From assembly GCA_026004015.1 (NCBI GenBank), contig BPIH01000002.1:77418-141417 (forward strand): DNA of 64,000 bases. Direction: 5' to 3'. Every line of letters begins with the position of its first letter. The first letter of the stretch is position 1. The notes beneath the pieces are model-generated. The model was given only the letters and a program-made list of their open reading frames with translations. It searched no databases and was not told the origin of the DNA. This DNA comes from Chloroflexota bacterium. Its GTDB lineage: Bacteria > Chloroflexota > Limnocylindria > Limnocylindrales > CSP1-4. Position numbers and translations under genes: made by a program. Shown piece after piece: positions 7,221 through 34,619 of this stretch.

Positions 7221-8024
7221 TCAGCCTCCCGGGACGAGGCGGACGGGGATCCCGGCCGCCGCCATGGCCGCCTTCACGGCGGCGATGGAGTGGATCCGGC
7301 GGTGGAAGATGGAGGCGGCGAGGACGGCGTCGGCGCCGCCGTCGCGAACGGCGGCCACGAAATCGTCGGGCCCGGCCGCCCCGCCCGAGGCGATGACCGG
7401 CACCGGGACCCGGCTCGTGATCGCCCGGAGGAGCTCGGTGTCGTAGCCCGACCGGGTCCCGTCCCGGTCGATGGAGGTGACGAGGAGTTCGCCCGCCCCG
7501 AGCTCGACCGCCCGCTCGGCCCAGGCGACGGCGTCGAGGCCCGTCGGGCGGCGGCCGCCGGCGACGACGACCTCCCAGCTCGGCTCGGCGGTGTCCGGAT
7601 CGCCGTTCCGACCTCCGGCGGGCCGGCGTCGGGCGTCGATGGCGACGACGACGGCCTGGCTCCCGAACCGTCGGGCGCAGCGCCGGACGAGGGCCGGTTC
7701 GGCGACGGCGGCCGTGTTCAGGGAGACCTTGTCGGCTCCGGCCCGCAGGACGGCCCGCATGTCGGCGACCGAGCGGACGCCGCCGCCGACGGTGAGGGGG
7801 ATGAAGGCCCGCCGGGCGGTGCGCTCGACGATGTCGAGGAGCGTCGAGCGGCCCTCGGGGGCGGCCGCGATGTCGAGGAAGACGAGCTCGTCGGCGCCTT
7901 CGGCGGCATAGCGCTCGGCGAGGGTCGGCGGGTCGCCGGCGTCGACGAGGTCGACGAAGCGGGTCCCCTTGACGACCCGGCCGTGGGCGACGTCGAGGCA
8001 GGGGATGACGCGTCGACGGAGCAT
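7221..8024 (-). CDS. hisF: Imidazole glycerol phosphate synthase cyclase subunit HisF
   Basis: Intact 267-aa ORF with the full HisF (beta/alpha)8 signature ([37 protein letters not shown]). Confidence 0.92.
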
Positions 8025-8025
8025 C

Positions 8026-8778
8026 CTAGGCCGTCCGTTCGAGGTCTCCGGACCGAGGTCGTCGCCGGCTCGGCCGGCGGCTCGGCCGTCGGTTCGGCCG
8101 CCGGTTCGAGTCCCCGCCGGTCCGGGCGGCCTCGGCCGCGGCGAGGCCGAGGAAGTTCGCCAGGAGACGGAGGCCGTCGCGGCCCGACCGCTCCGGGTGG
8201 AACTGGACGCCGCAGAGGCGCCCTCGGGCCACGGCCGAGACGAAGGGTCGGCCGTGGGTCGTCCAGGCGAGGATCGCCGCCTCGGCCGGGCCGGCCGGCG
8301 ATCCGGCGTACGAGTGGACGAAGTAGAAGTCGGCTCCCTCGGCGATCCCCTCGAAGAGCCGGTGGGGGCGGGTCCGCTCGACCTGGTTCCAGCCGATGTG
8401 GGGCAGGGTCGGCGCGTCGGCGAGGCGGACCGTTCGGCCGGCGAGGACGCCGAGGGTCTCGGCGCCGTCCTCGTCGCTCCCCTCGAAGAGGAGCTGGAGA
8501 CCGAGGCAGATGCCGAGGAACGGCCGGTCGGCCTCGATCCAGGCGCGGATCGGCTCGACGAGCCCGCGGCGGGCGAGGCGGATCATTGCCGGACGGGCGG
8601 CGCCGACGCCCGGCACGACGAGGGCGTCCAGATCGGCCAGGTCGGCCGGACGCCGGACCATGGTCACCCGGCCACCGACGGCGACGACGGCCTGCTCGAT
8701 GCTGACGAGGTTGCCGGCGCCGTAGTCGACGATCCCGACCCGAGGCGAAGCCCCGCCACCGGCCGGAGCCAGCGTCAC
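8026..8778 (-). CDS. hisH: Imidazole glycerol phosphate synthase glutaminase subunit HisH
   Basis: Class I glutamine amidotransferase motifs ([26 protein letters not shown]). GTG start at 8778, coupled to the hisF start. Confidence 0.88.
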
Positions 8779-21070: not shown

Positions 21071-22234
21071 ATGAGCGGCGCCGCCCGCTTCGAGGTCCTC
21101 GTCCCGCCGCCGGCCGACGGGTCGACCCGGGCCCGTCTCGGACGGCTCGTCCTGCCCCACGGCGTCGTCGAGACACCCCAGTTCATGCCCGTCGGGACGA
21201 ACGCCACGGTCAAGGCCCTCGACCCGGCAGACCTACGGGCCGTCGGGGCCACGATCATCCTCGCCAACACGTACCACCTCTCCGAGCGACCCGGTCACGA
21301 GCGGATCGCCCGCCTGGGCGGGCTCCACCGCTTCATGGCCTGGGACCGGCCGATCCTCACCGATTCGGGCGGCTTTCAGGTCGTCTCCCTCGGCGACCTG
21401 CGGGTCGTCGACGACGACGGCGTCACCTTCCGGAGCCACCTCGACGGCTCCCTCCGCCGCTTCACCCCCGAATTCGCCATCGAGGTTCAGGAGGCCCTCG
21501 GGGCCGACGTCGCCGTCGCCTTCGATCAGCCCGTCCCGCCAGCCGCCTCGGACCGGGCCACCGTCGCGGCGGCGACGGAGCGGACCCACCGCTGGGCCGA
21601 GCGCTGTCTCGCCGCCCACCGGCGCCCGGATCAGGCCCTCTTCGGCATCATTCAGGGCGGTCTCGAGCCCGACCTCCGGGCAGCCTCCACCCGCTTCATC
21701 GCCGGCCTTTCCTTCGATGGCCTCTGCATCGGCGGTCTCGCCGGGGACGAGACGCCGGCCGAACGGGCGGCCGCCATCGACGTCGTCGTCGAGACCCTCG
21801 GCCCCGACCCGCGGCCGCGGTACCTCATGGGCCTCGGTTCGCCGGCCGACCTCCTCGAGGCCGTCGACCGCGGCGTCGACCTCTTCGACTCGGTCCTCCC
21901 GGCCCGGGTCGCTCGGAACGCCCAGCTCTGGGTCCCCGGCGGTAGGCTCAACCTCCGGAACGCCCGCTTCCTCGACGACCCGGCCCCAGTCCAGGAGGAC
22001 TGCCCGTGCATCCTCTGTCGCACGTTCTCTCGGGCGTACCTCGCCCACCTCTTCCGAGCCAGGGAGCTCCTGGCGTATCGCCTCGCAACTTGCCACAACC
22101 TCACCTTCACCCTAGACTTCATGGCCAGGATCCGGGCTGCGCTGCGGGCCGGGACATTCGCCGCCAACCTCCCGGACCTCCGGCTGCGGACCGCTCGAAC
22201 GGTGGGCGGCGAAGCCGCGGTGAAGTCGGCGTGA
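21071..22234 (+). CDS. tgt: Queuine tRNA-ribosyltransferase
   Basis: TPQFMPVGT, DSGGFQ, LMGLGSP and a CPCILCRTF...H zinc site. Intact. Confidence 0.9.
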   Translation: MSGAARFEVLVPPPADGSTRARLGRLVLPHGVVETPQFMPVGTNATVKALDPADLRAVGATIILANTYHLSERPGHERIARLGGLHRFMAWDRPILTDSGGFQVVSLGDLRVVDDDGVTFRSHLDGSLRRFTPEFAIEVQEALGADVAVAFDQPVPPAASDRATVAAATERTHRWAERCLAAHRRPDQALFGIIQGGLEPDLRAASTRFIAGLSFDGLCIGGLAGDETPAERAAAIDVVVETLGPDPRPRYLMGLGSPADLLEAVDRGVDLFDSVLPARVARNAQLWVPGGRLNLRNARFLDDPAPVQEDCPCILCRTFSRAYLAHLFRARELLAYRLATCHNLTFTLDFMARIRAALRAGTFAANLPDLRLRTARTVGGEAAVKSA

Positions 22235-32024: not shown

Positions 32025-32645
32025 GTGGTCGGCGCGGGCGGCGAGGGAACGGACCGGTCGCCGGCCGCCGGCTGGCTGCGCGTCGCCGGGTCGGCCCGGC
32101 TCGCCGACGGCCGCCGGCTCCTGTGGTCGGTCGCCGAGGGCGTCCGGGGACGGCGCTGGCGGTGGGCGATCGCCCGAGGCGACGCGGTCGGGCATGCCGT
32201 TCTCCTCGAGACCGATCCCGACGGGCGCCCGGTTCGCCTCGAGGCGACGAGCGCCAGCGGGCTCCTGACGCTCCACCCGGATCCGGACTTCGCTGCCCTC
32301 CACGGCAACCTCGTCACGACGAACGGGATCGAGCACCTCTCCCTCCCCTGGTCGGCGGGCCACGTCATCGACGTCGTCGACGCCTTCGGGCCCTTCGTCG
32401 TCGTCGCCTGCCGGGGGATGGGACTGCCGGTCGAGGGCTCCTTGGAGCTCGGCGGCCTCGGGATCGATCGCTTCCTCCGACCGACGCCGGGCGTCGTGCG
32501 GCTCGTCCGGACGGCCGAGACGGCCTGGTCGCTCGTACCGGGCGAGCCCGCCGGCCGCCGCCGGGCGCCCTGGTCGGGGACGCTGACAGGGGACGGCCTG
32601 CCGCGCCTCCCCGACGGCACCTGCTGGCCTCTCGAGCTCGACTGA
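32025..32645 (+). CDS. Hypothetical protein
   Basis: An ORF of about 206 aa from a GTG just after the hflX stop. No recognisable domain. Protein-like composition. Confidence 0.45.
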   Translation: MVGAGGEGTDRSPAAGWLRVAGSARLADGRRLLWSVAEGVRGRRWRWAIARGDAVGHAVLLETDPDGRPVRLEATSASGLLTLHPDPDFAALHGNLVTTNGIEHLSLPWSAGHVIDVVDAFGPFVVVACRGMGLPVEGSLELGGLGIDRFLRPTPGVVRLVRTAETAWSLVPGEPAGRRRAPWSGTLTGDGLPRLPDGTCWPLELD

Positions 32646-32772
32646 GGCAGAGGTCCCGGCAAGCGCACGGCTGCGCCGCTCCCACGAACCGACGCCGCTT
32701 CCGGGGCTCCAGGGCGAACGTCACCCGTATCCGCTCGACGGACGAAGAACCGCGGCGGTCTGTTGGAACCTC

Positions 32773-32960
32773 GTGGACAACTCGCGACGCTGGGACGGTC
32801 GAAGTCTGAAAATCGTGGATAACGCCCCTTGTCAGGTGCCGGTCCGTCGCGTACCGTTCGTCTTGCCCGAAGGGGCCCTGGACCGAACGGCACCGGCGAT
32901 GCCTCGCATCACCGGTACCGACCTCGGATCGGCGGTTCCTTCGGGCGTTTTGTCGTCCCG
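32773..32960 (+). repeat. Unit A of a tandem structured element: GTGGACAAC, ATCGTGGATAAC, GCCCGAAGGGGC and GGTTCCTTCGGGCG blocks at fixed spacing, plus an internal hairpin
   Basis: The blocks are exactly identical to unit B, while all spacers have diverged. Confidence 0.7.
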
Positions 32961-33135
32961 CGGGGTCGCTGCGGCCGTCGCTCCCTGCCTGAGCCTCGCG
33001 CGCTCCTGCCGTCGCGCTCGATGGGCGGCGAGTGCCGAAGTGCCCGCCGGCTGATGTGACGTCCCGCGTCGCGGTGCCTCCCCAGGCCGACCAGGCCGAA
33101 GGCGCTCCTGCCGTAGGCGCTCCTGTGGATCGATG

Positions 33136-33320
33136 GTGGACAACGCGGCCTCGGTCGGGCCGGCAACCCTCGAGATCGTGGATAACCCACTTGCGCGGGC
33201 GGCTCGGCCCAGGGTAGCGTTCGAGGTGCCCGAAGGGGCCTCTGACGATGGCGATCCGGCCGGTGCCTGCACCGGTCGTGAGCCAGGACGGACGGTTCCT
33301 TCGGGCGCTTTCGTGTCTGC
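33136..33320 (+). repeat. Unit B of the tandem structured element (same four conserved blocks, spacing within 2 nt of unit A), in the leader of the EamA transporter gene
   Basis: Blocks at 33136, 33174, 33228 and 33294. The internal hairpin CCGGTGC-CT-GCACCGG sits where unit A has ACCGGCGATGC-CTC-GCATCACCGGT. Confidence 0.7.
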
Positions 33321-33686
33321 CGCAACCGGCGTCGCGCGGCTGGTCAGTCCAATCGTTCCCAGCCGGCCCCAAGCCGGTCCTCCGAGTCCGCCGGGCGTGC
33401 CGTCGACGACCGCTGGCCTCGACCGTCGTCGGTCCCGAGGAAGGCTTCAGCTCGGAGCCCTCCGCCGAGCCGGGCTGCTGGGGTGACGCGTCCCGAGGTT
33501 TCAGGTCCTGGTCCCACCCTCTCCGCTACGCCGGAACTGCCGATAAGGGCAGTTATGTCCGTTAGGCCGGCGGCCAGAGGCGCGTCCGAGCGGGCCTCGG
33601 CTCGGCCGCGATACGATCCGGCTCGTCATGCCTCCCCACGACCGCCAGGCGGCACGATCGGGCTGCCCCTCCGCCGGACGCCGACG

Positions 33687-34619
33687 ATGACGCGCCGCGG
33701 GCTCGTCTTGTTCGCGGCGATGTCGGTGATCTGGGGCATCCCGTATCTGCTCATCCGCATCGCCGTCGGGGAGATCTCGCCGGCGACCCTCGTCCTGGCG
33801 CGGACCGCCATCGCGGCGGCCATCCTCCTGCCGATCGCCGTCGCCCGGGTCGACTTCGGCGCCCTTCGCCCGCACTGGCCGTGGATCGTCGCCTTCGCCC
33901 TCGTCGAGATCGCCGGGCCCGTGGGTCCTCCTCGGCTCCGCCGAGCAGCGGATCTCGAGTTCCCTCGCCGGGATCCTCGTCGCCGCCGTGCCGCTCGTCG
34001 GGAGCGGCCATCGCCCTCCTGACAGGAGGGGCCGATCGGCTCGGGCCGACCGGCCTCGCCGGCCTCCTCATCGGGATCGTCGGCGTCGGCGCCATCGTCG
34101 GGGCGGACGTGGGGGCCGAGGACGCCGTGGCGGTCCTCCAGATGGGCGGTGTCGTCCTCGGCTACGCCCTCGGGCCGGCCATCCTCGCCCGCAGGCTCGG
34201 CGGGGTGTCCTCGCTCGGGGTCATGACGGCCTCGCTCGGCCTCTGCGCCCTCCTCTACCTCCCCATCGTGGCCCTCGACCCGCCGGCCGGCCTCCCCTCC
34301 CCGGCTGTCCTCGCCGCCGTCGTGATCCTCGCCGTCGTCTGCACGGCCCTCGCCTTCCTCGTCTTCGCTGCCCTCATCGCCGAGATCGGCCCCGTCCGGG
34401 CCACGGTCATCACCTACGTCAACCCGGCCGTGGCGGCCGTCCTCGGCGTCCTCCTCCTTGGCGAGGACTTCAGCCCCTCGATGGCCCTCGGCTTCGCCCT
34501 CGTCGTCGCCGGTTCGGCCCTCGCCACCCGCGAGCCCGACGGCGTCGACTGCCGAGGCATCGCCGCTCGTCCTCGAGCCGGCCGGCGACGCCGAACCCGG
34601 GAGCGCGGCCTCGCCCTGA
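33687..34619 (+). CDS. EamA/DMT superfamily transporter (apparent frameshifts; 3' end uncertain)
   Basis: Polytopic membrane protein with two EamA-like halves (WGIPYLLIRIAVGE..., TYVNPAVAAVLGVLLLGE). Confidence 0.65.

Follow-up and report, generated by a model that had tools for sequence, protein, structure and literature searches.

In the 64-kb window analysed here (64,000 nt of contig BPIH01000002.1, from a Limnocylindrales genome of the phylum Chloroflexota; all positions count from its first letter), two adjacent units lie between the gene for a 206-aa protein and an EamA transporter gene. Short blocks that are 100% identical in both units are set in sequence that has largely drifted apart, which raises the question of what such blocks are kept for: sites for the replication initiator DnaA, a leader of the downstream gene, a palindromic repeat, or the working parts of a gene. 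We propose that each unit, A and B, is probably an autonomous gene for a small non-coding RNA (sRNA), a judgement that concerns the gene itself and excludes the sub-claims on DnaA and on the function of the RNA. Compared with their relatives, the units appear as two old tandem paralogues downstream of miaA-hflX and of the gene for the 206-aa protein, a predicted beta-barrel. By the same comparison, the identical blocks represent the family-wide invariant elements of such genes, namely the boxes, the -10 element and the helix that closes the RNA.

The preliminary description of the window had reported four identical blocks, and all four are found in both units where it placed them, far above chance. 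With at most one mismatch, TCGTGGAYAAC matches six times in the window, four of these within the units (32771, 32813, 33134 and 33176); shuffled windows gave a mean of 0.71 matches, and none of 100 shuffles reached six. The combination GCCCGAAGG-N40-70-CCTTCGGGC occurs exactly twice, at 32865-32946 and 33228-33306, with an expectation of 0.00. According to a repeat finder, successive boxes start 42, 321 and 42 bp apart and the units recur every 360-363 bp, in line with the ~360 bp first proposed. The third, partial box noted at 33124-33132 (TGTGGATCG) is also real, and lies exactly 11 bp upstream of box 1 of unit B. Two details change. The inverted repeat that joins the ends of each hairpin exists, but its pairing spans 13 bp, including two G.U pairs, rather than 9 bp; and the spacers, previously taken to be completely diverged, have a -10-like GTAsCGTTCG block and CACCGGT in common.

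Structure and covariation of the two predicted RNAs

Folding and a covariance model predict an 82-nt small RNA for unit A (32865..32946) and a 79-nt small RNA for unit B (33228..33306), both on the + strand, as are all features of the units given below. Each folds as one long hairpin, at -57.8 kcal/mol (z = -6.9) for A and -58.9 kcal/mol (z = -6.0) for B. On the - strand, unit B reaches only -40.9 kcal/mol (z = -2.7), 18 kcal/mol short of the + strand, because the G.U pairs turn into A-C mismatches there. In the closing helix the first and last 13 nt pair (GCCCGAAGGGGCC / GGUUCCUUCGGGC); as this pairing includes two invariant G.U pairs, it is strand-asymmetric. Its arms occupy 32865-32877 (GCCCGAAGGGGCC) and 32934-32946 (GGTTCCTTCGGGC) in unit A, and 33228-33240 and 33294-33306 in unit B. 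The covariance model, built from relatives, scores unit A at 78 bits on the + strand versus 43 on the - strand and unit B at 76 versus 37, and found no third copy in the 64-kb window.

Pairing is near-complete in both RNAs, and the conserved unpaired features are small. Unit A has the apex GAUGC-CUC-GCAUC, and its conserved unpaired parts are the CUC triloop and a GAAC-type internal loop. In unit B, a GA-rich internal loop (CUGACGAUGG / CCAGGACGG) accompanies the apex GGUG-CCUG-CACC; what is conserved there is the asymmetric loop CUGAYGAUGG / CCAGGACGG and a CYUG tetraloop.

The covariation suspected from the two units alone is borne out by compensatory changes, both in the orthologue groups of the window and among 51 distinct RNAs of a related subtype (type I, below). 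The unit A orthologue in the related locus L002 carries compensatory changes at 6-78 (AU>GC) and 26-54 (GC>AU), one such change being GCCCGGAGG / CCUCCGGGC. The unit B orthologues (L001, L002, L038 and L128) show them at 13-67 (CG>UA), 14-65 (UA>CG) and 31-50 (GC>AU). In the type I alignment, 97.8% of cells form standard pairs. Double-change cells number 81; column shuffles gave 29.5 +/- 3.8, none of the 500 reaching 81. Pairing falls to 33-51% in slid controls whose partners were shifted by 1-3 columns. The outermost type I pair, which lies outside the search pattern, is G-C in 33 RNAs, G.U in 11 and A-U in 7. A single MAFFT alignment of all window-like RNAs resolved the closing and apical helices only, because the middle parts cannot be aligned across subtypes. 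Judged by these substitutions, the hairpin RNA of each unit is under selection.

The blocks had been ascribed to cis-elements and RNA structure, not to paralogous small proteins, and the coding signals agree. In this genome of 74% G+C, genes show strong third-position GC (GC3), and this periodicity is lost across ~32650-33650. Open reading frames (ORFs) of 93 and 117 aa do run over the units (32773-33054 and 33133-33486), neither of them with a Pfam match, and the frame is not kept: of 97 family members, only 25 have it open. The distance from box to RNA varies by 1-nt steps, RNA lengths are not multiples of 3, and in the L002 orthologue of unit A the frame ends at a stop 8 codons past box 1.

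Three related genomes keep the order miaB-miaA-hflX followed by the gene for the 206-aa protein (P206), with a flanking protein that is 77%, 62% and 45% identical to the window's. Comparison with such homologous regions had been suggested in the preliminary description, and the same elements follow the P206 gene in all three. Both units are present in L002. In the most distant, L004, the P206 gene is immediately followed by two units in tandem, with a different gene downstream; in L001, unit B is intact and unit A is reduced to its 3' half (7430-7465), directly after the stop codon of a DUF2231 gene. Other genomes thus contain separate orthologues of unit A and of unit B, from which it follows that the duplication is old and that selection has preserved the identical blocks. 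That these sequences represent old paralogues, not a recent duplication, had been missed before.

The proposed gene family and its promoter plan

We scanned one genome per species with the pattern CCCGRAGGGGC-N45-75-GTTCCTYCGGG, which identified at least 119 stretches; 73 of the 80 that were listed are labelled Chloroflexota, Chloroflexia or Limnocylindr*, and several genomes contribute more than one locus. The collected set holds 132 units with 117 distinct RNAs of 69-97 nt, all of them long hairpins. A metagenome scan anchored on the interior of unit B only gave 40 stretches, of which 3 were true relatives, too few for statistics; boxes and closing helix accompany all 3 true matches, and neither accompanies the 37 chance matches.

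The family plan consists of two to three GTGGAYAA boxes in one orientation, then -35-like and -10-like hexamers, then a predicted RNA of about 80-85 nt and a short U-rich tail. Relative to the start of the RNA, GTGGA begins at -52 +/- 2 in 109 of 129 promoters, and also at -84, -94 and -104; most promoters have three boxes. Distances between boxes are 11 bp (n=87), 31 bp (n=45) and 41-42 bp (n=45), that is, whole helical turns that put all boxes on one face of the helix. The logo of the proximal box is aa..TcGTGGAtAAg, that of the next box sGTGGAyAAc and that of the most distal tGTGGAc. Boxes in the reverse orientation (TCCAC) are essentially absent from the 130 nt upstream of the RNA in the 129 promoters. 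In 975 kb of related DNA, GTGGAYAA occurs 200 times; in 183 cases an RNA 5' arm lies 35-115 nt downstream, and the other 17 occurrences, several of them in coding sequence, are about what chance would give (~20 by our estimate from composition).

Six nucleotides past the proximal box comes a TTGACC-like hexamer and, 17-18 nt further on, TAnnnT at -14 to -9. The RNA would start ~7 nt after TAnnnT, and a purine stands at -2/-1, directly before CCCG. The RNA is followed by the tail consensus C.tTT.c.Tg, with T at 90% in two positions. Both units follow this plan, with promoter-like and terminator-like signals that the preliminary description had missed.

In unit A, a degenerate distal box (GTTGGAACC, 32762..32770) stands 11 bp before box 1, which is the family-wide position of the distal box; it is degenerate in the L002 orthologue also. 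Box 1 (GTGGACAAC; GTTGTCCAC on the reverse strand) occupies 32773..32781, at the family position of ~-94 relative to CCCG. The promoter-proximal box (TCGTGGATAAC; GTTATCCACGA on the reverse strand), at 32813..32823, answers to the family consensus at -52. The putative -35-like hexamer TTGTCA (32829..32834; family column TTGACC at ~-38) is separated by 17 nt from a putative -10-like TACCGT (TAnnnT, 32852..32857) that lies in a repeat shared with unit B. The corresponding features of unit B are a distal box (TGTGGATCG, 33124..33132) at the modal family spacing of 11 bp before box 1, box 1 itself (GTGGACAAC, 33136..33144; repeat and pattern match) and a promoter-proximal box (TCGTGGATAAC, 33176..33186; repeat, pattern match and family logo). 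Its putative -35-like TTGCGC (33191..33196) stands 18 nt from a putative -10-like TAGCGT (33215..33220), again in the repeat common to both units. At the 3' end, GUUUUGUCGU (unit A) or GCUUUCGUGU (unit B) comes after the GC-rich closing helix of 13 bp. The U-rich, terminator-like tail of unit A (GTTTTGTCGT, 32947..32956) fits the family 3' consensus GGGC.tTT.c.Tg, and that of unit B (GCTTTCGTGT, 33307..33316) the family tail consensus.

The same boxes and closing helix enclose otherwise unrelated RNAs of 70-280 nt. Subtypes with unrelated interiors comprise types I, II, III, V (two-armed) and VI. Type I RNAs (71-76 nt) have CUAACGG and CCCACG internal loops and a GAUCRCAUCAA apex; type II, the kind found in the window, has the apex GGUG-CUUG-CAUC. 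Near-match and model searches added further members with the same boxes and closing helix, both tandem partners and larger RNAs. Among these are a conserved RNA of ~275 nt beside a glycosyltransferase gene (L018 2088-2367; also in L024, L037, L040, L106 and L121), a 180-nt RNA with the same boxes, promoter and closing helix (L036 3706-3885), and two-armed RNAs of 145 and 96 nt with two copies of the apical module each (L092 and L098). Types II, III and VI occupy the position after hflX-P206, and type I lies between the gene for a 200-aa protein and a membrane-protein gene. Over 100 Limnocylindria genomes carry the plan, at conserved sites that for the most part follow miaA-hflX and a 200-aa gene. 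Tandem arrays of 2-3 genes, spaced by 227-470 nt, occur at 22 of 122 loci.

Rfam 15 gave no match at the gathering score in the whole window or in 17 related loci (141 kb), and a permissive search of 32500-33800 returned only three chance-level matches (E = 3-10, ~15 bits); the 280-nt relative has no Rfam match, nor do the other larger RNAs. The searchable literature held nothing on small RNAs of Limnocylindria, on a Chloroflexi DnaA box together with an sRNA, or on the RNA end sequences. If the gene model is true, these loci constitute a class-wide non-coding RNA (ncRNA) family new to Rfam and to the searchable literature, in a major uncultured group of soil, freshwater and hot springs for which that literature describes no regulatory RNA.

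The proposed box-binding protein, the possible role of the RNA and the alternatives

Read on the reverse strand, the boxes are TTRTCCAC (GTTGTCCAC and GTTATCCAC), corresponding to positions 1-8 of the DnaA-box 9-mer, and their sole variable base falls on position 3. The DnaA-box consensus is TTWTNCACA in Escherichia coli and YWRTCCACA in Mycobacterium tuberculosis, and the positions at which taxa mainly differ are 1-3 and 9 (PMC5043019). The resemblance to DnaA boxes pointed out in the preliminary description holds at positions 1-8 of boxes 1 and 2 in both units, but not at position 9, which in the window is G (both boxes of unit A and box 2 of unit B) or C (box 1 of unit B), not A. In E. coli oriC, the boxes of each half share a direction and lie 2-4 bp apart, and ATP-DnaA oligomerises on them head to tail; the essential boxes of datA also share one direction, and DARS requires a head-to-head pair (PMC5742627). 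The boxes of this family form same-direction neighbours 2 bp apart, an 11-bp period, with a fuller box beside a weaker one. The geometry of oriC fits, and DARS is excluded. DnaA is our first, if tentative, choice for the protein that binds the boxes, and a dedicated regulator is about as likely.

Several observations weigh against the account that we prefer. The promoters and terminators are putative assignments drawn from consensus and position only. A simple consensus scan of 32500-33800 called neither signal, although its thresholds (a TATAAT-like -10 and hairpin loops of at most 8 nt) are ill-suited to high-GC promoters and long hairpins, and the closing helix could not be called because loops were limited to that length. 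The U tract is short and interrupted, with UUUU in A and UUU in B. For most family members the closing-helix sequence belonged to the search pattern, so that its invariance in that set is partly imposed; pattern-independent support for the helix comes from tandem partners, near-matches and the interior-anchored scan only. As for DnaA, A at position 9 is found in just 7% of proximal boxes, compared with 20% of those at -84 and 70% of those at -94, the distal box retains TGTGGA only, and the proximal box has a conserved AAnnT flank. We know of no DnaA-box counterpart of that flank.

The rarity of the T before GTGGA (position 9) and the extra flank both favour the alternative that, under the same gene model, the boxes are operators of a dedicated transcription factor. 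So does the near-exclusive occurrence of the motif at these promoters in 975 kb, as expected of a small regulon. Candidates would be an OmpR-type response regulator, given the 11-bp direct repeats, and a helix-turn-helix (HTH)-GAF-GGDEF protein encoded near a type I member: a gene for an HTH_17/MerR-like domain, three GAF domains and GGDEF lies ~1 kb downstream of the type I RNA at ~35 loci. MerR-like domains of the BldC type recognise direct repeats that run head to tail at intervals of about one helical turn, with the consensus AATTxxxx(C) read mostly indirectly (PMC5859096). The arrays described here resemble BldC operators in their variable number of one-orientation repeats, about one helical turn apart and upstream of a promoter, and in the TTAT-CCAC-S layout, in which an AT-rich 4-mer is followed by 4 bp and a C or G; in addition, the domain encoded near one family locus is BldC/excisionase-like. 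The box motif differs from the BldC consensus, however, in that GTGGA is invariant. Moreover, the gene for the HTH-GAF-GGDEF protein, a candidate suggested by synteny, is absent from the window and linked to only one family locus, and a dedicated factor would require coincidence for all eight bases of the DnaA core, including the sole variable position.

The remaining explanations do without an RNA gene, or make it secondary. A function at the level of DNA, in which the boxes titrate or recharge DnaA in the manner of datA or DARS, or exert some other replication control, had been one of the two readings first proposed; it would account for the two to three same-direction DnaA-box-like sites per unit and the several units per genome. 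The datA locus combines a same-direction box cluster with an essential site for IHF and acts independently of transcription (PMC5742627). Locking to a promoter, which datA does not require, is what these boxes show: in over 100 copies their distance from it is fixed to the nucleotide, and the arrays lie between -46 and -100 of the promoter, not beside an unwinding element. The hairpin covaries as RNA, with G.U pairs on one strand only, and is therefore under selection as RNA. A tblastn search of 0.98 Mb of related DNA, with an approximate E. coli DnaA sequence as query, found no dnaA match, and the window has no GC-skew signal of an origin; its skew mirrors gene orientation only, with genes converging at ~35-38 kb. 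A precedent is CcnA of Caulobacter crescentus, a single 182-nt gene for a base-pairing RNA that lies inside the replication origin, overlaps weak DnaA boxes, is driven by CtrA boxes and links an RNA regulator to the cell-cycle machinery (PMC8959179); the RNAs described here differ in forming a multi-member family and in not lying at an origin. With promoter-locked boxes and neither a nearby dnaA match nor origin skew, we consider a replication element improbable.

The other reading first proposed, a tandem riboswitch or cis-acting leader controlling EamA, draws on the position of the units upstream of that gene on the same strand and on the tandem elements known from some riboswitches. We regard it as very unlikely. 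Each unit has promoter-like and terminator-like signals of its own, 370 nt separate the end of unit B from the start of EamA, a single hairpin offers no alternative antiterminator fold, and Rfam gave no match at the gathering score. The downstream gene varies from EamA to an Rce1-like protease (L004), a glycosyltransferase or a membrane protein; it is the upstream hflX-P206 that is the conserved association, and the EamA gene of the window is itself frameshifted. Equally hard to credit are palindromic repeats of the REP (repetitive extragenic palindromic) or MITE (miniature inverted-repeat transposable element) kind, cruciform sites, or remnants of duplicated small protein genes, to which the near-palindromic ends and the two ORFs over the units might point. 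The 64 kb contain no more than two copies, whose orientation is fixed and whose syntenic positions are conserved, and the asymmetry of the arms, with their G.U pairs, is conserved; the ORFs have neither conservation, GC3 signal nor Pfam match, and one is cut short early in L002.

In the sRNA gene model that we prefer, RNA polymerase would start at, or 1 nt before, the G of GCCCG, and the closing helix with its tail would act as an intrinsic terminator while also shielding both RNA ends from exonucleases. The boxes would dock a sequence-specific DNA-binding protein that sets promoter activity. Were this DnaA, it could form head-to-tail oligomers, with a strong TTRTCCAC box as the nucleus from which the weaker box 11 bp away is bound.

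For the RNAs themselves we lean, cautiously and from their shape alone (a point that likewise tells against the account), towards action by protein binding or as a shared processing or stability determinant. Protein binding is favoured because the conserved features are internal loops and a sequence-invariant closing helix, and there is no open seed; antisense or seed pairing seems somewhat less likely. A closing helix whose tandem G.U is kept around unrelated interiors of up to 275 nt is more than a terminator alone would require. A mimic of the anti-Shine-Dalgarno sequence in the type I apical loop was considered and set aside: some members have GAUCACCUC, and most have CAUC, not CCUC.

Sets of sibling sRNAs with a shared upstream activating sequence are known, such as Qrr1-5 (LuxO/sigma-54) and RsmX/Y/Z (GacA box), and tandem sibling pairs include OmrA/OmrB with OmpR and PrrF1/PrrF2 with Fur. 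As in those systems, there are several paralogues per genome, some in tandem, each with its own (here predicted) promoter and terminator, and one upstream motif at a fixed promoter distance, hence one regulon. Unlike them, the units add a sequence-invariant closing helix that joins the 5' and 3' ends, their interiors are unrelated, span 70-280 nt and expose almost no single-stranded seed, their motif is an asymmetric 8-mer in head-to-tail arrays instead of a palindrome or enhancer, and Rfam finds no homology to those families. Protein-binding RNAs built as long hairpins with paired 5' and 3' ends, namely 4.5S/SRP (signal recognition particle) RNA, 6S RNA and Y RNA, offer a second comparison. 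They share with the units one irregular hairpin closed by the RNA ends and conserved internal loops that are likely recognised. The window RNAs, however, have no Rfam match and are much shorter than 6S RNA, motifs of SRP domain IV are lacking, and there are many paralogues with different interiors.

Taken as a putative sRNA gene family, the units have an unusual shared cassette and a DnaA-box-like operator, and the use of one cassette for variable cargo suggests that the RNAs share a partner protein or a rule of processing or stability. If DnaA does bind the boxes, an RNA regulon would be wired directly to the replication initiator, and the arrays would also be a sizeable sink for DnaA. To our knowledge, no RNA regulon wired in this way has been described. 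The most specific form of the idea is speculative and, in our estimate, unlikely as a whole: a DnaA-gated ncRNA regulon in Limnocylindria, with 70-280-nt RNAs, a tandem-G.U closing helix recognised by protein, transcription set by DnaA oligomers and arrays that buffer free DnaA. Were such a regulon real, its RNAs would together broadcast the status of the cell's replication initiator.

Flanking genes and minor observations

The P206 gene (protein P0001; window 32025-32645) follows hflX; in relatives the hflX stop adjoins or overlaps the start of this gene. A hypothetical protein of the Chloroflexota metagenome-assembled genome (MAG) KatS3mg065 matches P206 at 100% identity, and P206 has 664 homologues at E <= 0.001, the few with organism names being Chloroflexota or Limnocylindrales. 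It has no Pfam domain. Its confident AlphaFold model (pLDDT, the predicted local distance difference test score, 93) is a beta-barrel, with the DUF1089 protein PA1994 (2h1t, E = 2.5e-7) as the best solved match. We considered P206 as an RNA-binding partner and rejected it, since the structure match shows nothing RNA-related; it also has no significant similarity to the 200-aa protein encoded beside type I RNAs. Between the P206 gene and the units, L001 (6740-7427) and L002 (6711-7393) carry a 59-aa Cys-rich ORF and a DUF2231 membrane-protein gene, both absent from window 32646-32760.

At type I loci, TATCAT-N6-7-GTG occurs 20-60 nt past the RNA terminator (for example L042 878-915, and also L050 and L070) and resembles a promoter followed by the start codon of a leaderless transcript that would encode a ~240-300-aa membrane protein. 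The -35 position of the TATCAT promoter overlaps the U-rich tail of the type I RNA. That RNA was considered as a leader of the membrane-protein gene and dismissed, that gene having its own TATCAT-N6-7-GTG start. The gene for the large HTH (BldC/excisionase-like)-GAF x3-GGDEF protein follows the membrane-protein gene.

Five contigs with genuine family members (L043, L045, L055, L062 and L066) are labelled Dormiibacterota, Verrucomicrobiia, Gaiellaceae or Alphaproteobacteria. Typical type I neighbour genes are present in four of them (all but L062), and the five contigs are probably mis-binned or mislabelled. ARAGORN called a tRNA-Leu at window 21744-21828, implausibly inside apparent coding sequence, where Rfam finds no tRNA; it called none in the 0.92 Mb of loci L001-L123, fewer than expected for random genome samples.

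Compared with its L001 orthologue, the EamA gene (window 33687-34540) is split into three frames: aa 1-78 at 33687-33920, aa 79-106 at 33922-34005 and aa 106-284 at 34004-34540. The break amounts to two frameshifts within ~85 nt; the gene is a pseudogene, or else the MAG is misassembled there. The 7-bp hairpin previously noted at 33535-33554, between unit B and EamA, is present in the window, but relatives keep only the sequence CCGATAAG...AGTTATGT and not the stem. This motif, CCGATAAG-N3-AGTTATGT, is retained in three genomes (window 33540-33560, L001 ~7843-7866 and L002 ~8103-8126), and may be an operator with ATAA...TTAT half-sites.

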